A stretch of 48,459 nt of DNA, filler included, from Catajapyx aquilonaris (taxonomy: Eukaryota), in assembly GCA_000934665.2 (NCBI GenBank). It is 2 parts of 2 records of this genome, joined end to end, with 100 filler letters (N's around TTAATTAATTAA, not from the genome) between each part and the next. Parts side by side here need not be neighbours in the genome. Positions count along the whole stretch, not along the records: positions 1 to 24,174 come from JYFJ02005554.1; 1 more part is not named here. One strand, given 5' to 3'. The translations under genes and the position numbers were made by a program. Positions within the stretch are counted from its first letter, which is position 1, and the number at the start of each line of letters is the position of its first letter. Of the stretch, positions 2,382-43,219 are shown one piece after another. Under the pieces are notes generated by a model. The model searched no databases, was not told where the DNA came from, and saw nothing but the letters and a program-made list of their open reading frames with translations.

Positions 2382-2466
2382 TACTATTACTACTACTATT
2401 ATTATTATTATTATTATTACTATTATTATTACTACTACTACTACTATTATTAATTATTAATTATTA

Positions 2467-2524
<58 letters not shown>
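2323..2524. repeat. (ATT)n microsatellite with interspersed ACT units
   Basis: Directly visible ~200-bp trinucleotide tract; it accounts for the poly-Ile and poly-Leu ORFs. Confidence 0.98.
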
Positions 2525-2526
<2 letters not shown>

Positions 2527-2661
2527 CTTTGCGTGCTGGCCTGACCATCCACCAGAGGCTTCATTTTGTAGGTCATACGAGGAGGACAGGTGTAACCTGG
2601 ACTCCGCTGGCTACCCCTGTATACGGGATTTATGCCGTGAGTAGATGATGATGATGATGAT
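2525..2661 (+). mobile_element. Possible 3' end of a non-LTR retroelement (RTE-like) with a (GAT)n tail
   Basis: Short stem-loop (cccctgtatacggg) followed by a (GAT)6 tail at 2644-2661, an arrangement typical of RTE-clade 3' ends. No ORF is left. Confidence 0.35.
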
Positions 2662-3167
2662 AGCGGGAGGGAGTCATGTTAGAGGGTGACCTCGCAACTT
2701 TCGCGCCAGGTAGCGGTAGTAGTCACGTGAGTGGGTGAGTTCGCATCCTCCACGCCAGACGGCGGAGTGACAGGTTCTCAGAATCGAGTTCGCTACCTCA
2801 TAAAGCGTATTCTTAAAAATGTTTATTTTTATTAGAGAATTATTTCCATTTCTGACGTACAATGTGTTTGGATTGAATAGTCCAATTGAAAAATGACGTT
2901 ATTTGACGCGAAGAGGAACTGAGAAAATGACCGATTTTCATTCCATGGTGATGATCATTTAATTTCCTCTGGCAATATTATGTGATAGTCATTCATTACA
3001 TAAACTCATAACCACACACTTGAAAAACGAGTGTGCCACTCTCGCGTATCTTTTAACTCAGAAGATTTAATATTTTTGATGTAAGACATTTTTCTTCTGT
3101 GAAATGATAAAGAACTCTGCTTTTGCACGACACCTTCACATATCAAAGGTTCGTGCTCTTTGTACAT

Positions 3168-4510: not shown

Positions 4511-7500
4511 CGTTGCAGGCATTAGTGCAAACTGGAACAAGTTTATAAGCACTAAGCATAGAAGAGCTTGTGATGCTACTCTGCAACACACTTGTTGGAG
4601 ACAAATTAAATTTACTAATGAATCTAATACTCCTGCTCGTTTTATGATTGTATCCTGAGGCTTAATGGATTTAAGAAAATCTGCAATTGCGCGAGAGGTG
4701 GAGATAAAACTCATTGCAATAAATTGACATGCCATTTTTGAAGCCCGAAATATGCAAAATGCTAATTATTTTGTTACTGGCATGCTATGCAGCGATGCAC
4801 AGGTCACGATGTGTAAAAAAAAATTGACGTCGCCTCATTTTGATCAAAAATTGATTTAATACCTTCAGCAATTGGACTCTTCATTTGTAATTCATACCTG
4901 AACCTCTAGCCCCAACGTACTTGTACAGTATACACACATGAAAGTGGAGGTGAAACGTGCGTTCTGGCTCCCCAATGAGAGGCAACTCCAATCCATTACA
5001 CCCAGCTCGCGTGAAAACCCTCTCAGCACCTGCCTTCCGACCCTTCAAACTAACACTATACCTTCATTCCCTCTGACCCTCCTCACTCGTGCAAGGGTCA
5101 CTTGTATCAATAGGGCTTCCGTATAGGAAAAGCAAGCCGAATACGAGTAAATATTATTAACATCGCATTTCTCTCCCTTTAATCTCCCTACGTAAATATT
5201 CCAAAAATGTTTGTGGAGCTTCCTTTGCAAAGCATACTGAATTATAAATAAGTTAGTCAGAGCTGAAAGCTATATAATTTGAAAATACGGTTACTTATAG
5301 AGTTGTAGTGTGGGGGAGGGCGGTGCAAGTCTAGGCGCAGGGTAAGTTAATGAAAAGCTAATTACTAAAAAACTGTCGTGCATCGGGATGAGAGACTCCT
5401 CTGGAATGGATTTCCTCTATCCTTCTTCCATCAACTGCGATTCCTTTCAAGTGTAATTCCCTCTTAAGACATTTACTATAGGTCTCTGTGTACAAATTCT
5501 GCTTATGTACAGTGCAGGCCAACATGTTTCCCATGAAAAGATAAGATTTACTTTTGATGCTTCAGATATACCGTATGCCAGACTGTTGACTACCAGTATA
5601 CAGTAATCCATTAGCTTGAGAGACCTGACAACAATTCCGGTTGTTTTCCTGCATTTTACGGGATATATCCATGCATGAAAAGCTCTACGGAATGACTATG
5701 AGCAGCTTTAAAACTGATTACAAAACCGGCCATAATCTGAATGCAAATCAGGCACACTTCCTAATCATAAGTGAATTTTGAATAACCCTGCCGTGGTAGC
5801 TTTCAGAGATTGAGTTGGCAAAATCTTGATGCTAGGGGCGTAATTTGGGAAGGAAGAGGATGATTAGTTGTATCAGTGGGAGTGGAAGTGGATCAGAGCC
5901 GTTTGATCTCCATAAATTCATTTCTGCACTCGACGCGTCCTCCTATGGCACACTTGATCAACAGCGCCATTCATTCCCAAACTTTAGCGAGCTCTATAAA
6001 TTCGAGTACGTAATTCGGATAGGAATCCATCACAGCTAACAGCCCTCTTGATAAAGGATAGCAAAAAAATATCGCCTATATATGCAGACTAGTTCAACAA
6101 ACTCACAACTCACTGACATAACATTAATTTTCTATTCCGCTTTGAAGATATAATCTTGTTTATTTATGCCATTGGAGAACTGTAGCCTTTCAGCACAGTG
6201 CGTGCGTCCCATATATGATGTGGAATCAAACTACATGGTATGATTCTCCCTCCCCTTCCCTCTCAAAGTTTCAATGGTATTCTTCGTTTGTTGGTCGTTT
6301 ATGTTACAGTAGAGCAGTGGAAAAACATCATTCGAATGGGAAGTGAGTTTACCAGTAAAGATCGTAAGGCTATAGTAGATATAGCCTAACACTTATGCAT
6401 GATAGTGCTTAAAATGAAACTGGGCAATATACTATAAGCTATAGCCTCGGTTCTCCCTCTAAGGGTTCTGCCCTATCATGGAGGAACATAAATAATAAAT
6501 AATAAAGATGTATTGCCTCCGTGATGTTGACATGTCTCCAGTTTATCATAGCAAACAGTTAAGAGAGAAACCTGATGGTGGGAGTAACAATCGTGTCATT
6601 GGGAGAGGTCAACATTCCATAACATTTCTTCCATATCCGTTGTTGGTGTGTGTACTTGGGTCACGTGTCAGGAGAGTTGTTTCATTTGCTTCCCTCGGTT
6701 TAGAGGATCCTTAACAATAAGCTGAAGTGACCGAGACTTAATTAACATCAGCTTCACATCTTCAATTACGGATCTGCTTGGTTCTCTGAATATGCCTTTC
6801 TAGATCTTGCAGATCCCGATACAAAAGAGGTCTTCAAAGTAGAGTTGTATATGCGCAAACATTCCAGTGCAAGACTGAAGTCACCATGTTCTGAATTGAT
6901 TAAAAATACCTGAGCTAAAGAAGCGCGTGTTTATGACTGAGACCTAAATTAAGAGAATACCTAAAGAATGAGGTCAGGCGTCATTCCTCCGGTAAACAAG
7001 AGTCGCCGATCCGAGTAAAATTTTTCAGTTGATTGCAGTTTTTCTTGTGACTTCAAAAGCATAATAAGAAGCTACTGTAATATTATTGTGCTCTACCTGG
7101 CATGTCGGTTATTGGGCATTGCATGCACTTGACAATTTATTTCTTTTGCCCAAAGTGCATACCACAACTGAACCCTTTTGTTTTTATTCAGGAGCTGTAT
7201 GTAGAAGGTTAAGTGGTCGATTAATGTGTACATTTTGTACACTAAAAACATTTATTGTTTGCTACAGTGGACTAATATACAGCGGCACATGCATTGCTTG
7301 TTTACCAGAATTTTTGCGCAGGTGGTGGGAGGAGCTTTTGCGCGAGAGAAAAATGCCTCGCATCGCAGATACATTATGCAACATATAAACAACACAACCA
7401 CTCCAACCACACGGCCACATCAAGAGAGACTGTAGTCCCTATAGCACGCGGAGTTGATAGGTTGACTATATAGGCCCTACCTTATAATTATAATATATTA

Positions 7501-12059: not shown

Positions 12060-14173
12060 GTCCACGTGAGGTTCTCCGCTACTACCTACTGTCCCTGGCA
12101 GCAGCGGACCTACTGGCGGGGGTACTGCTCATCCCGCTGTCCGTCTATCCTGCCCTCCGGCAACAATGGGTCTACGGCGACGCGGTGTGCCGAGCAGCAG
12201 GATACGGAATGGCATCACTTTGGGTCATTTCTGTCTATACCTTCATGTGGATCGGGGTGGACAGGTACAGTATAGAGCAATGCGGTTTTATAACAGTCAC
12301 TTTTACCAATAATGCCATATTGCTTTGGAAGTATGTTTGTGACTCACAGGAAAACAATGCAAAATGCACCTTATATCCTGCATAGTGCACTGTAACCATC
12401 AACATGGCACCTAAGGTGTTTATGCTCATGTTTCCGTCAGCAGTTCGAAAAAGCTGTCTTCTGTGCTTGAACAGGTACGTGGCTGTCACGAAACCAATGC
12501 GGTACGAGACAGAACAGACTCCTACCAGGTGTCAATGCTGGGTGGCCTTCACCTGGGTGACGGCCATGCTGTTATGTCTGCCACCAATTCTCGGCCTGTC
12601 CAGGCCTCGCTTTGAGAGAGACGTCCTTGTCTGCTTTCCCGACTGGGGAGGAATGGCCGCCTACTCTGCTACTCTTGCCGCTCTTGTACTCGGACCCAGG
12701 TACACCTACACACTTGTCAGTTTATATCATGTCAAAGTTGATAAACAGAACATGATTTCCCTTTGTAAACATGCACTCTTGCCGATCGTATGGCAAGCCA
12801 ACTGCTTCCCCCTTCTACCGTATTAATGAAGAAATGATAAGAGAAGTAATTATCGTTTACTTTCAGCTTAATAACGTCTTCGTACACTCTGGGTTACATA
12901 TTTGTAACCTTGAAAAAAATGCGCAGTGGCGAGGCTAATGTGGACCGGGAATTTGCAGCGGCTTTGAGCGAGCAGTTGGCCGGTAAAGGTCACATATTGG
13001 CCACTGCTCTCACCGTGGTCTTCTGGGCGTCTTGGACGCCATACGCTGCTGTCCGAGCCTACGAACAGGTTATTATCATTTTCCACATTATTTCTTCGAT
13101 TCCAGATGTAATTTACTTGTATTTTCTGAATTCATTTCATGGCTGTTGTATGAAAGTTCTCTATCTGGTTATGCCTTAGCTATTTCAGAATATCTCAAGT
13201 AGTGATATGGAAGTACTATTATGATAGTAGGTCAGGTATTACTACATTGATTATCATGAATATTATAAACTTCTGAATATGAAATCAACAAAAGTACTGG
13301 CTTTGTTGATATCGATTCTCCTTGGAACACAATGTAGGATAATCCGGTTAGGAGATAATAGATATCCCTTTTCTTTAGTAGTAACTTAGTAACAAGTAGT
13401 AACTTCTGATGATGGCTCATATTATTTTCATGCAGGATCACCAGAATACTTCACATTTTAGTAATTTCTTATATTTCCTGTGGTCCCATAATCGATCCAA
13501 TATTAACAAATGAAAATTGTTATAAAATTAGGTTTAGCCATTACTTCAAGCTCAGTAATTGTTTATTCTTATACGTATTCCTTATTCATCTTATGCATCT
13601 TGTATTGTAGTGGCGCGTAGTCTTGTAGTGGCGCGGTGGTGTATGGGTTAGCGCCACAGCCGCGGTGGTGTATGGGTTAGCGCCACAGCCTTCCACCTCT
13701 AAGGCCCAGAGCCCGATCCCCGGATCAGACAGAAGTTTGGTAATTAAAGGAGGATCCCCTAACAGACCAAATGCCTATCACAAGAGCATTATCTTGGAAC
13801 TCAAACCAAACTGCATGCAAAAACAGTGTAACCTTTGGCAATCTTCCCTAATCTCCATTTCCAAACTCCTGAACCAGTGTCACGAACCAACAAAACCGTA
13901 CCTGTAGCATGTGAAGTGAAGTCAAGATGGAAATCATAATCTTGAGCGTATAGTGTTTGACACCATGTTTGTATCCCTCAGGTGTTCGGTTGGCGCCTTC
14001 AGATTCCGTTTCTTCACTTCGGTCTGTTTTGGCTGGGAGTCCTGAACTGCTTCTGGAAGGCCCTTCTGTATGCCGCTCTGAGTCCTTCCTTCCGGCTGGG
14101 TCTCCGTCTCTTCTGCATGTCTCTTTGCTGTCGCGCCAAAGACCGACAGGCACAGCTCATTTTGGAGGAATAA
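12060..14173 (+). CDS. DopEcR: Dopamine/ecdysteroid receptor (DopEcR; GPR52/GPR21-like) class A GPCR, 5'-partial. Exons 12060-12264, 12475-12699, 12867-13068, 13982-14173
   Basis: Four exons with GT-AG sites and compatible phases splice to ~274 aa: GPREVLRYYLLSLAAADLLAG...[33 protein letters not shown]...DWGGMAAYSATLAALVLGPSLI...KMRSGEANVDREFAAALSEQL...WLGVLNCFWKALL...LSPSFRLGLRLFCMSLCCRAKDRQAQLILEE*. These blocks match the insect DopEcR sequence as recalled. No TM1 exon was found in the window. Confidence 0.92.
13630..13740 (+). mobile_element. tRNA-derived SINE head in the last DopEcR intron, with a duplicated A-box
   Basis: 29-bp unit cgcggtggtgtatgggttagcgccacagc repeated in tandem (13632-13660, 13661-13689), followed by a degenerate B-box (gagcccgatccc). 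Confidence 0.6.
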
Positions 14174-24174: not shown

Positions 24175-24274
24175 NNNNNNNNNNNNNNNNNNNNNNNNNN
24201 NNNNNNNNNNNNNNNNNNTTAATTAATTAANNNNNNNNNNNNNNNNNNNNNNNNNNNNNNNNNNNNNNNNNNNN
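24175..24274. other. Assembly gap with artificial spacer (44 N + TTAATTAATTAA + 44 N)
   Basis: Symmetric 100-bp construct; the 12-mer puts stop codons in all six frames. Confidence 0.9.
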
Positions 24275-28487: not shown

Positions 28488-28582
28488 NNNNNNNNNNNNN
28501 NNNNNNNNNNNNNNNNNNNNNNNNNNNNNNNNNNNNNNNNNNNNNNNNNNNNNNNNNNNNNNNNNNNNNNNNNNNNNNNNNN
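28488..28582. other. Assembly gap (N run) within a poly-C tract
   Basis: 95 N flanked by C runs. Confidence 0.98.
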
Positions 28583-33925: not shown

Positions 33926-34890
33926 CAGGGGTAGCAATATTACGCGTTTTTACGCGGGGAACGCGTTTTTTACGGTTTTTTCCCCGAGGTCTCGGAAAAA
34001 TGGGAAATTTTGTTTTTGTTTTTTATCTTGCCTTTTTTTAGTTCAAAGTTGCTACGCATGTTAAAAAAACCTTATGCATTCTTTAAATCTGCATATTTTT
34101 ATTAGCGATACGCTGACACATATGAATTATTCGTATGCAGTTATGCTCATATTAAATGCTTTTTTGTCCTCAAAATAATGTCACTGTTACTGCCCGTCTG
34201 CCACATTACAAAAGTCACTCTCTCACTCCTGGGTGTCACTGTCACAACTATAGAGTCCTCCTCGTCACCATTTAAGTCAGCTTGGGCTGAAGAATTATTG
34301 GGAGTTGCTCTTGCAGTGCTGAAGGTGCCACCAGCTTCTCTACCCTCTCCACTTTCAGCCGATTACGATTTTTTTTGTGTGTGGACCCAATAGTGGACCA
34401 GTTGCGTTCACATACTGCTGAACTGGGGGGAAGGCACGAAATTCGTGCTGCAATTGAAGTCAGTGTCTGATTTGTGCATAATATAATCCTTGCCACCATG
34501 AACTTGGAGCTGAGTGGTGTGCCGATTTCCACAGGGCCTTGACCACAGTCTAGTATGGATTCGGTATTCACCCAATGCCTTTCCATCATCAATGTTAAAA
34601 TAACTGCACTGTCCAGAAGGCACTCACAGTATCATTATCACGGAGGCTTTTACCTTCATATCGAGGATCCAACAGGTTAGCAGCAAAGTGGATGGGCTTG
34701 CAAGTAAATGAGTTTCGCTCCTTGACACACATTTTAACCTTCTCCTGCTCTTGTGGGGTTAGGTGTGTGGTACCCAGGTGTTCTTCCAATGTTTTGTCAA
34801 TTTGCACAAAAACTTCAGAAACATCAGAGAGTAATGCAGAATCAGACACAAGGCGAGAAATTCCTCTGGAAATTGGACGAAGTACCTCTT
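33926..34890 (-). mobile_element. hAT transposon 3' remnant (transposase C-terminal and dimerisation domain, frameshifted)
   Basis: Peptides PIHFAANLLDPRYEG and IAARISCLPPSSAVCERNWSTIGSTHKKNRNRLKVERVEKLV are hAT C-terminal motifs; CAGGGGT terminus with acgcgttttt subterminal repeats at 33926. Confidence 0.88.
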
Positions 34891-37174: not shown

Positions 37175-38697
37175 ATGGCTCAGGGGGCTCAGGTGACTAT
37201 AATAACGCATGTCGATACATGTTGGATCCGTTTACACCGGTTTACACCCAAGATATTGCAATTTAAATGTGGCATTTAAATTTCAGACAATGGATTTAGT
37301 GTCACCATACCGTGTGCCTCACCTGATGTACTATTTGGGCCAAGGAGATGAAGTCACATGTCGACCCTCTCTGCTTGGATGTTTCTCGGTGAACGGCAGC
37401 AGACAGTTTCAACAGGACATGTCGCAGTTAAAATACTATGATTACAACAAGGTGCCGGCGAAGCCGCTTGACTTGCATGAAGGCATAGACGCTGCGATTA
37501 AAAAGGACGCCACTGATGTCAAGAAAGAAGGGCTTCAGCATATTCTGCGCTGGATTCTGGCTAACAGGCATCATTTCAGCCGTGCTGATGGATGCCAGAG
37601 GTGAGCCATTACTTTTAAAACATTGACAACATTGGGTATAATATAATACCTGATGATTTACTAATCGAAATATGTCAGATTTCTGCCACAGTTTGTGTGC
37701 TACCGAGGACTGCTGACAGCCGTAATGTGCACGCCATACGAGCAACAAGAGGGATGGAAGATCTGCGCATCAATGTTCCTCGGCACGATTTACTTGTTTG
37801 CCATGGACACGGAGCAGAAGAAAAAGTCGAGACAGCATGACACCGAGAGGATGAAGGCCATGCAGGCTTGAGGATTTAAGTTTGAGCAGTACATTTTCGC
37901 AGGTGTGTCTCATCTGCAAGTTTCATAATCGCCGTCAACATGAACTGATTACGTTTTTCAGATGATGCTAACAGCACGCCCAAGACGAATGTACCTGTAA
38001 ACGAGAATGAGGAGTTCTCTTGCGTTTTTACCATGAAAATAGCTGCTTCTTCCGTCTTGTTTGCGGCTGAGATGGATGGTATTGAGTCAGGAGAAACTCT
38101 GATGGAATCAGATGTCGTGAACAAGTATAGCACAAAGTTTGTGGAAGCCAAGACTACCCGAGTTATTGAAACTAGGGGACATGACATGACATACCGCCGG
38201 TGAGGCAGACTTCTCTGACTGTTAGCAAGCCAATAATATTACACTCTTTCAACAGGTACAAGATTATGAAGTGGTGGGCGCAGTGCACCACTGTTGGTGT
38301 AACGAAGATTGTACGTGGCCTACGTGATGACCATGGCCTGGTCCATGAAGTTGGTGAGGTGGATGTGGCAGATCTTCCAAACCAAGGAAAGGTCCATATT
38401 TATCTTGCTTTGCAAACATTCTTATTCCATACACTTGTCCAATGGTAAAAATTTTATTGCCATTGTTACTTTCAGGACTTCTGGGATCCGTCAGTGTGTA
38501 TGAATTTTATGAACGAGTTCCTCCAGTATGTGAAGTCAGTTGTGACAACCGACAGCCCGAAGGTGCACTACTGCTTCAGTTGGAAGCCCAACAGACCAAT
38601 CATCACAGTGGAGCTATATGACGAGACTAACGATCTTGTCCTGCCCGAGTGGTACACCAATGCTGTAACCACTGGGGAAAGTTCTCATCATCGTTGA
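37175..38697 (+). pseudogene. DXO: DXO/Dom3Z/Rai1-family decapping exoribonuclease gene, full length but with one in-frame TGA (37869-37871). Exons 37175-37192 (tentative), 37287-37600, 37679-37902, 37962-38199, 38256-38391, 38476-38697
   Basis: GT-AG introns with matching phases give 383 codons containing DXO motifs: RPSLLGCFS..DMSQLKYY, LQHILRWIL, FVCYRGLLT..CTPYEQQEGW, *GFKFEQY, LFAAEMDG, FVEAKT, KIMKWWAQ, GLRDDHG, WDPSVCMNF, LPEWY. Confidence 0.92.
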
Positions 38698-41944: not shown

Positions 41945-43219
41945 TTGTTATCTTAGAGCTTTCTGGTACACAACATCAGTTGGTCGTCTTTCTACCATGT
42001 GCCAATAAAAAGAGATTGTTGCTTTCCCCCACTCTGGAGAATGCAACATAAAGCTTTCCATGGGAGAAGCAGGGTGCAGTTAAGTGAACTCCTGCCACCA
42101 GAAAGGACTGTCCCTGGGCTTTGTTAATCAACATTACAAAGCATAGTTTGAGAGGAAACTGAAGTCGCTTGAACTGATATGGGACATCTGTGGGAATCAT
42201 GGGGATTCTGGGAATGAAGACATCCTCATATTTGGCACAGCCAGTCATGATAGTAGCTTCAATGGCATGGGGCAGGAGCTGCTTGACACAAAGTCCAGTG
42301 CCATTGCACAATCTGGGTGGGTCCATATTTCTGAGCAGGATGTTGGGAGAGCCAATCCTGAGAACCAAGTTGTGAGGTGGCAATCCTGGTGGTTGCAGTG
42401 AGTTTAGGAACTAATTAAGTCGGATAATACACTGCTTGATCAATAGCATGTCTTTGCTCAATGCATTCTGTTCAGATCGATGTGGCAAAGGAAGTCCAGA
42501 TTTCAAATCTGTCAGGGATTTGCCCACCATGGTCATGACCTTATCTTCAAGGTAAATGAGGGCCTGGTTGTGCATCGCAAACGTATAGTTGAGGTGAAGT
42601 GTAGGATTTTCAAGCCTATGCCTGTGTAGAATATCATTCTTCCGTCATGAAGTCCCGGAAATAATTCCAATTCCCTTTGGATTCCCTTTGGAATGAGCAG
42701 GAAGTGATGATGATGGCGAAAGGATTCCTGAGGCCTGAAGAAGATGTGGCAGCAGCAGCTTGCAAATTGGCATCCCAAAATGAGGGGTATGGTGGAAAAA
42801 CATGATCACTGGCAAAAGTGTAATTTTTCAGGAGAGCGAATTGAAGTTTGTATTTTCTTAACAAATCATAGGGAATGCTGGTTGTGATCTAGTCCGTGTG
42901 GCCGTCTCATGCATAATACATGAACTTGGAGTACCTATACCAAACTATTTGTCATGTCTTATACATAGTTGCTAGGTGTTCAGGTAAAAAATGACAAAAA
43001 TGTCCGTTATCATATTTTTCCACCACACCCCTCAAATGACATCCCCTTCCAGTAGCCCCCTTCTTTGAAACATGACGGTTGGCGTTACAGGCGGGAGAGG
43101 TTGAAGGTGTAGGAAACGGACCACAGATGGCAGGCAAATGACGGTTGGCAAGGTTGGCATTACAGGCGGACAGACTGACAGATCACAAATGTCTTTATTT
43201 ATATAGAAGAAGATATAGA
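41945..43219 (-). mobile_element. Helitron remnant with PIF1-type helicase C-terminal fragment (about 41950-42410)
   Basis: [37 protein letters not shown]...FIPRIPMIP...FKRLQFP...INKAQGQS...[15 protein letters not shown]; 5' end A|TCTATATC..TATATAAAA..tctgtcagtctgtcc at 43219 on the minus strand. Confidence 0.9.

Follow-up and report, generated by a model that had tools for sequence, protein, structure and literature searches.

Aminergic class A receptors pair the amine of their ligand with an aspartate at position 3.32 of the third transmembrane helix (TM3), a position that faces the orthosteric pocket. A 48,459-nucleotide stretch of the Catajapyx aquilonaris genome (assembly GCA_000934665.2), which was analysed at its full length and is called the window here, encodes a receptor of the DopEcR type with methionine at this position. 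DopEcR is the best-studied candidate membrane steroid receptor of arthropods, and its dual pharmacology rests on two insects. The locus therefore raises two questions: whether the window holds the lineage's own DopEcR or a diverged copy, and what the loss of an acidic side chain would mean for dopamine sensing. From alignments and trees, we read the gene as exons 2–5 of a DopEcR/GPR52-family gene that is the ordinary ortholog of a pancrustacean outside the sampled insects and in which Glu3.32 has been replaced. We consider this reading about 60% probable.

Methionine at position 3.32

In the + strand translation of exon 2, the first exon visible in the window, counting back from the arginine of the DRY motif (3.50) placed a cysteine at 3.25 (TGC, 12188–12190, + strand) and methionine at 3.32 (ATG, 12209–12211, + strand). 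An earlier interpretation of this DNA, the sequence-only reading, had arrived at Met3.32 by the same count, which was reproduced. At the top of TM3, Cys3.25 is the conserved cysteine of the disulfide bond; its alignment column is invariant. The TM3 sequence assigned to 12196–12264 was as read, but the Cys3.25 codon lies 6 bases before this start. The placement of the complete DRY motif in the TM3 exon held only in part: reading through the splice donor also yields R-Y, by coincidence, but the real tyrosine codon lies in the next exon (12475 onward). Exon 2 ends inside the arginine codon, so the last base of that codon and the tyrosine codon come from exon 3.

The methionine codon lies inside G-Y-G-M-A-S-L-W, where the family consensus is G-Y-L-E-V-T-L-W. 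The consensus motif with Glu3.32 had been given for insect DopEcR (GYLEVTLW) and was found in the ortholog alignments. The alignment from Cys3.25 to DRY was free of gaps in every row printed. The turn of TM3 reads G-M-A-S in the window versus L-E-V-T in the consensus and is more altered than in most orthologs: among 126 of them (at least 260 amino acids long), Gly3.31 occurred in none, Ala3.33 in 12 and Ser3.34 in five. A change from Glu to Met takes at least two base changes and three flanking residues differ as well; a single base-call error therefore does not explain Met3.32. One public sequence, 'Rhodopsin-like 6' of Homarus americanus (P0209), jumps from mid-TM3 to intracellular loop 2 (…CTFM-YETVQTKTR) and skips the DRY region, which looks like a faulty public gene model and not a real deletion.

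Family identity

Exon 2 alone matched nine proteins at E ≤0.001 among 372 candidates. These were of the DopEcR/GPR52 type (E 2e-23 to 5e-18), shared 66–71% identity with the exon save for one weak match, and included 'GPR52' of the springtails Orchesella and Allacma and of a mosquito. Exon 3, searched against 1.84 billion representative sequences, matched 85 proteins at E ≤0.001, 40 of them at E ≤1e-10. A profile of 11 full-length matches recovered 256 proteins at E ≤1e-30 among 8000 scored candidates; names and counts for these profile matches refer to the 120 listed of the 256. Many of the matches listed bear the names 'G-protein coupled receptor DopEcR', 'GPR52' or 'GPR21', from insects, crustaceans, chelicerates and a centipede. 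The spliced window protein was 57–61% identical over 262–270 residues to the 25 best-scoring rows, most of them insect-named. Exons 2 and 3 exceeded the Pfam 7tm_1 cut-off of 30.5 bits (exon 2: E 7.7e-13, 48.9 bits; exon 3: E 6.1e-11, 42.7 bits), by which the protein is a member of the class A (rhodopsin-family) G-protein coupled receptors (GPCRs). Exon 4 alone scored 14.6 bits, under the cut-off.

The best named relatives were DopEcR and GPR52, and the trees described below placed the window sequence in that clade. By named relatives and tree placement, the gene is of the DopEcR type, as the sequence-only reading had proposed. In the Protein Data Bank (PDB), human GPR52 was the top match of the ortholog profile (E 1.7e-41, 145.6 bits), GPR21 matched with E 1e-35, and histamine H2 (137.9 bits) and beta-adrenergic receptors (135.8 bits) came close behind GPR52.

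In the 126 orthologs, 98 columns show 90% conservation or more; the window protein agreed with the consensus in 83 of them and deviated in 15, including the start of TM6, where it has G-K in place of N-P. The invariant residues were kept, namely D2.50, Cys3.25, DRY, the tryptophan of TM4 (W4.50), the cysteine of extracellular loop 2 (ECL2), P5.50 and the W-x-P of TM6. DopEcR-family motifs were found in ECL2 (C-F-P-D-W-G-G-M-A-A-Y), in TM7 (N-C-F-W-K-A-L-L-Y) and in the C-tail (S-L-C-C); their family forms (ECL2 C-x-x-D/E-W...M-x-A-Y; TM7 N-(S/C)-F-W-K-x-x-x-Y; C-tail L-C-C) were derived from these alignments and are not a published definition. The receptor looks functional, judging by its open frame, canonical splice sites and conserved residues. 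In the whole DopEcR family, the window included, TM7 reads F-W-K-x-x-x-Y, with lysine aligned to the asparagine of NPxxY, which is kept in GPR52 (C-N-P-V-I-Y). The canonical class A NP is therefore absent from the DopEcR family.

Insect DopEcR (Drosophila CG18314 and the Helicoverpa armigera protein) belongs to the same clade as the window receptor and has the same exon-encoded architecture from TM2 to the C-tail. The two share the ECL2 block, TM7 N-x-F-W-K-x-x-x-Y and the C-terminal L-C-C. They differ in residue 3.32 (Glu in insects, Met in the window), in the TM3 turn (L-E-V-T versus G-M-A-S) and at the start of TM6 (N-P versus G-K). The aminergic class A receptors (histamine H2, beta-adrenergic, dopamine D1/D2) share the fold and the TM3 register; the window receptor lacks an acidic 3.32 and belongs to another subfamily. 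It has neither the Glu3.32 of its orthogroup (G-Y-(L/V/I)-E) nor the Asp3.32 of canonical aminergic receptors.

Variation of residue 3.32 among orthologs

The sequence-only reading had raised the question whether 3.32 varies freely among DopEcR orthologs. It does not vary freely, being Glu in 112 of 126, but 14 orthologs have a non-acidic residue (three G, three S, two A, two K, and one each of T, L, M and Q), as do 10 of the 22 named non-insect arthropod orthologs. Among the 120 matches listed of 256, Glu occurred in 111, Gly in three, Ala and Ser in two each, and Gln and Lys in one each. All 61 insect-named rows in this list (hand count) had Glu. The 12 named non-insect orthologs that kept Glu3.32 were those of Oratosquilla, Procambarus, Armadillidium, Hyalella, Homarus, Tachypleus, Centruroides and Strigamia, two of Daphnia and two Limulus rows. 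Glycine was found in the springtails Orchesella and Allacma and the spiders Trichonephila, Caerostris and Uloborus, serine in the spider Oedothorax, alanine in the tick Ixodes, lysine in the barnacles Pollicipes and Amphibalanus, and leucine in the millipede Chamberlinius. Like the window receptor, these orthologs are otherwise conserved receptors whose residue 3.32 is non-acidic or basic, and none is more than about 60% identical to it. Because 14 accepted orthologs lack it, Glu3.32 is, on these alignments, a majority feature of the DopEcR orthogroup and not a defining one.

Methionine at 3.32 was also present in two public sequences (P0007 and P0214), both inside the barnacle clade (support 100), with the window outside it. 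P0007 reads GYLMVTLW versus GYGMASLW in the window: the same methionine with other flanks. On a tree built without columns 3.31–3.34, the distribution of Glu versus non-Glu states over 51 ingroup rows required at least 10 changes, and that of the residue states at least 14. On this count, arthropod DopEcR orthologs have replaced Glu3.32 independently at least 10 times, and the window is one of these cases. Glu3.32 was present in the four outgroup rows of the 55-row tree. The sequences P0008 (Ala3.32) and P0148 (Gln3.32) fell within the Hemiptera part of the tree; if they are truly of insects, the loss of Glu3.32 extends beyond non-insects. A sister group further out (P0038, P0046, P0050, P0054, P0056 and others) has Gln or His at 3.32. 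Drosophila CG13579 is mentioned as a DopEcR-like orphan in a survey of decapod GPCRs (PMC8177520).

The window gene thus adds a member to a known receptor family, and its change is shared with public sequences, in kind by many and in identity (Met) by two. Met3.32 is less special than first thought, because the change recurs in many non-insect relatives. The single locus is of modest weight, being one more example of a pattern in public sequences. The general pattern outweighs it: Glu3.32 is fixed in the insect-named rows, insects being the group in which the dopamine/ecdysteroid pharmacology was defined, but close to half of the named non-insect orthologs lack it. A literature search found no paper discussing a change of residue 3.32 in DopEcR orthologs.

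Phylogenetic placement

Two maximum-likelihood trees were inferred, one with 60 rows and one with 55 rows and without columns 3.31–3.34, by a quick search and with support from the Shimodaira–Hasegawa approximate likelihood ratio test (SH-aLRT) only. Both recovered chelicerate, myriapod, pancrustacean and insect groups, and the gene tree followed the species tree. An SH-aLRT of 98–100 set the DopEcR ingroup off from the outer groups, and the window lay apart from the more distant receptors that carry Gln or His at 3.32. The window sequence fell inside Pancrustacea (SH-aLRT 97 with 60 rows, 94 with 55 rows), and its neighbours there were a polytomy of springtails, branchiopods, malacostracans, the barnacle clade and further non-insect sequences. 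In both trees it was sister to P0013 (Thr3.32; SH-aLRT 91), a sequence with no named relative above 58% identity among the matches listed. The end branch of the window measured 0.70 against a median of 0.32 in the 60-row tree and 0.85 against 0.30 in the 55-row tree, a length that resembles those of other non-insect pancrustacean lineages. Placed inside the pancrustacean clade and with a branch like those of its neighbours, the gene therefore looks like the lineage's own ortholog. Most likely it is the ordinary ortholog and not an extra copy or an old paralog, as far as the trees and alignments go.

The sequence-only reading had suggested that the gene may be a diverged paralog that no longer senses dopamine, being steroid-only or tuned to a new ligand; a canonical Glu3.32 DopEcR would then persist elsewhere in the genome. 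An end branch two to three times the median, the deviation in 15 of 98 highly conserved columns, a Gly3.31 unique with respect to the 126 orthologs and the presence of more than one copy in some arthropods (for example, the two Limulus rows) would agree with such a paralog. The position of the window gene within, and not outside, the pancrustacean ortholog clade speaks against it, and equally long branches occur in other non-insect lineages. Moreover, the taxa without Glu (four spiders, a tick, two springtails, two barnacles and a millipede) had no second copy with Glu among the matches listed. In the 48 kb window itself, tblastn detected neither a second copy nor an alternative TM2–3 exon (remaining matches E >0.5). 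We therefore regard the paralog as improbable and prefer an ordinary ortholog.

The ligand pocket

Two ligands have been reported for the insect receptor. The DopEcR of Helicoverpa binds 20-hydroxyecdysone (20E) with a dissociation constant (Kd) of ~18 nM and dopamine with a Kd of ~450 nM (Kang et al. 2019, PMC6693746). According to the same source, dopamine is displaced by 20E on the Helicoverpa armigera receptor, docked 20E forms hydrogen bonds to Tyr68, Tyr109, Thr113 and Trp160, and a mutant with four alanines binds less 20E (PMC6693746). In the cited sources, the insect DopEcRs reported to respond to added dopamine and ecdysteroids are the Drosophila and Helicoverpa proteins only (PMC6693746; PMC3794910). 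In lepidopteran orthologs of 343 residues, Tyr109 is Tyr3.30 and Thr113 is Thr3.34, flanking Glu111 at 3.32; this mapping assumes that the Helicoverpa numbering equals that of the 343-residue orthologs. The window has Tyr, Met and Ser at 3.30, 3.32 and 3.34. Because the docked 20E contacts flank 3.32, the altered TM3 turn is predicted to be part of the pocket that both ligands share.

Asp3.32 is an established amine anchor in aminergic receptors; for DopEcR no such role is established. The sequence-only reading had treated Glu3.32 as the positional counterpart of that anchor. This was borne out by alignment: the family Glu aligns with the amine-binding Asp in TM3 of the histamine H2 receptor; in human GPR52 the corresponding residue is Ile. 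In the window the pocket-facing turn is remodelled from L-E-V-T to G-M-A-S, and the acidic side chain at 3.32 is lost. Without Glu3.32 the canonical salt bridge to dopamine could not form, and the response to dopamine via the canonical mode would probably be weak or absent. Signalling might then proceed via an ecdysteroid, via another lipophilic ligand or through basal activity; the hydrophobic methionine could still line the steroid site. Reduced or lost dopamine sensitivity in the window receptor is plausible. Alignment with the orthologs revealed no new, potentially compensating acidic residue on the extracellular side of the window receptor; the acidic residues peculiar to it were confined to intracellular loops 2 and 3 and the C-tail. 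A co-varying partner of 3.32 was sought by comparing the 112 Glu rows with 15 non-Glu rows, but the differences tracked taxonomy and none was at an obvious pocket position.

The substitution might instead be tolerated. Glu3.32 would then not be a decisive dopamine contact, and the Met receptor would keep the dual dopamine/ecdysteroid pharmacology. In genes that are otherwise well conserved, at least 10 replacements have occurred at 3.32, and the substitutes (G, S, A, T, L, M, Q and even K) are very different. The window receptor retains other extracellular acidic residues of the family, namely the Asp before Cys3.25, the Glu/Asp of ECL2, the Asp after the ECL2 cysteine and the Glu at the end of TM6. 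The TM5 serine triad typical of catecholamine receptors is also absent from DopEcR, as read by eye with numbering inferred from P5.50. These points are countered by the alignment of 3.32 with the amine-binding Asp of the H2 receptor. Glu is also present in every insect-named row among the matches listed, in the four outgroup rows of the 55-row tree and in 112 of the 126 orthologs. Its retention argues for strong constraint wherever the pharmacology has been characterised. We consider tolerance a possible account, with odds clearly short of even.

A further account takes human GPR52 and GPR21 as its model. Each is reported to be self-active, with its own ECL2 occupying the orthosteric pocket (PMC9877262; PMC10085714). 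If the window receptor were constitutively active in this way, with its own ECL2 as the plug, the hydrophobic Met3.32 would line the plug. GPR52 and GPR21 were the closest solved relatives in the profile search (E 1.7e-41 and 1e-35), and Ile at 3.32 makes human GPR52 hydrophobic there, like the window receptor. ECL2 is strongly conserved in the family, and its profile pairs column for column with the GPR52 stretch, the equivalent of the immersed K-P-G-Y-H-G-D of GPR21 (PMC9877262), with a matching terminal Asp. The window has R-P-R-F-E-R-D at the same place in ECL2, paired by eye and not by a computed alignment; ECL2 length and the P-x-aromatic-x-x-D pattern are similar. The relation is distant, however: GPR52 has N-P-x-x-Y in TM7 versus K-x-x-x-Y in the DopEcR family, and the score of GPR52 exceeds those of the H2 and beta-adrenergic receptors by a small margin. 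Insect DopEcRs are reported to answer added ligands, which means that in insects, at least, ligands can reach the pocket (PMC6693746; PMC3794910). In the cited sources, self-activation by ECL2 is demonstrated only for human GPR52 and GPR21 (PMC9877262; PMC10085714). We think it unlikely that the window receptor works in this manner.

A more general proposition is that Glu3.32 is a switch for dopamine sensing that has been thrown off at least 10 times across arthropods, leaving receptors with a steroid as sole ligand or with GPR52-like self-activity. The lineages in the off state would be those of the window, springtails, spiders, ticks, barnacles, a millipede and some bug-like sequences. Both the switch and this list are put forward tentatively, and we incline to doubt them. 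If the switch were real, the window receptor with its G-M-A-S turn would be a natural separation-of-function allele that lets the dopamine function be distinguished from the ecdysteroid function. Should Glu3.32 be the amine contact, the window receptor and the non-Glu orthologs are natural mutants for the sharing of one pocket by two ligands, and caution is due before non-insect arthropod orthologs are named dopamine receptors. If Glu3.32 is irrelevant, dopamine binds DopEcR non-canonically.

Integrity of the gene

Several points weigh against our reading of an ordinary ortholog with an altered pocket. The non-insect pancrustacean branching is a polytomy in which the long branches of the window and P0013 might attract each other. 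The deviations in 15 of the 98 conserved columns could mean relaxed constraint. A tblastn search of the 12 kb upstream with four orthologs did not recover exon 1, which would encode the N-terminus and TM1. Our literature search, whose scope did not extend to the original characterisation of 2005, found no paper addressing Glu3.32 as a dopamine contact of DopEcR. Finally, the ECL2 plug of GPR52 and GPR21 suggests by analogy that 3.32 may have another role in this family. The functional inference is weak because no paper on Glu3.32 was found, because the residue has been replaced repeatedly without gene decay and because the pocket of GPR52/GPR21 is filled by ECL2.

The missing exon 1 and the deviating columns, together with transposon fragments in the neighbourhood, would also be expected of a decaying, non-functional copy whose odd TM3 arose through lost constraint. 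A first intron of more than 12 kb is unremarkable for a gene of this type. The 273 codons contain no stop or frameshift, all eight splice signals are canonical, and D2.50, DRY, the cysteines, W4.50, P5.50 and W-x-P are all kept. A pseudogene is, in our judgement, highly improbable.

The search upstream yielded noise, for example a Ser/Gly-rich peptide without a transmembrane helix at 5864–5941 (E 9.5). A hidden Markov model of the N-terminal part, built from 100 orthologs and run against all stop-to-stop open reading frames (ORFs) on both strands, matched only the translation of an ATT microsatellite. This match (2460–2678, minus strand) was rejected as a low-complexity artefact. The ATT trinucleotide microsatellite itself lies at 2323–2524 (about 66 copies, 92% matches), and its translations are long pseudo-ORFs of poly-Ile, poly-Leu and poly-Asn.

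Exon structure

The gene model is based on tblastn of four orthologs against the window and on inspection of the junctions. The sequence-only reading had described four visible exons as intact, and this was upheld: spliced together, exons 2–5 form an open frame of 273 codons without a stop before the terminal TAA, with GT-AG signals at all junctions. All exons lie on the + strand and encode TM2 through TM7 and the C-tail; the exon for TM1 was not found in the window. Exon 2 (12060–12264) begins with two bases of a glycine codon, in a frame set by homology. The N-terminus and TM1 must therefore be encoded by an exon further upstream. Exon 2 covers the end of intracellular loop 1, TM2, extracellular loop 1 and TM3 to the D-R of DRY, between the acceptor ttcacag|GT and the donor GGACAG|gtacag. 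The following intron of 210 bases (12265–12474, GT...AG) splits the arginine codon of DRY, and homology restarts at 12475 (tblastn).

Exon 3 (12475–12699; acceptor gaacag|GTACGT, donor ACCCAG|gtacac) encodes the tyrosine of DRY, intracellular loop 2, TM4, ECL2 and the start of TM5 up to L-G-P. Its ECL2 has the cysteine and the P-D-W-G-G-M-A-A-Y block. Exon 4 (12867–13068; acceptor ctttcag|C, donor GAACAG|gttatt; tblastn E 1e-11 to 3e-15) comprises the remainder of TM5, a short intracellular loop 3 and TM6 (F-W-A-S-W-T-P-Y). Exon 5 (13982–14173; acceptor ccctcag|GTGTTC; tblastn E 7e-12 to 2e-19) encodes extracellular loop 3, TM7 (N-C-F-W-K-A-L-L-Y) and a cysteine-rich C-tail (L-C-C) and ends with the stop codon TAA at 14171–14173.

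Other elements in the window

Runs of N were present at 24175–24218, 24231–24274, 26065, 27546 and 28488–28582 (44, 44, 1, 1 and 95 bases, respectively). They are assembly gaps or masked bases, and none of them touches the receptor exons. Downstream of the receptor in the window, an ORF at 37206–37604 (+ strand) matched the start of the RAI1-like PD-(D/E)XK nuclease profile (Pfam PF08652, positions 2–67 of 333, E 7e-11) and is probably an exon of a DXO/Rai1-type gene. A search of a protein collection with part of this exon returned only sub-threshold, unrelated matches. On the minus strand, an ORF fragment at 34272–34631 matched the C-terminal dimerisation region of the hAT family (Pfam PF05699, E 3.2e-07) and is a remnant of a hAT transposase. 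An ORF fragment at 41976–42410 (minus strand) matched the 2B domain of Pif1 helicase (Pfam PF21530, E 5.7e-13); presumably it may be the remnant of a Helitron-type transposon.

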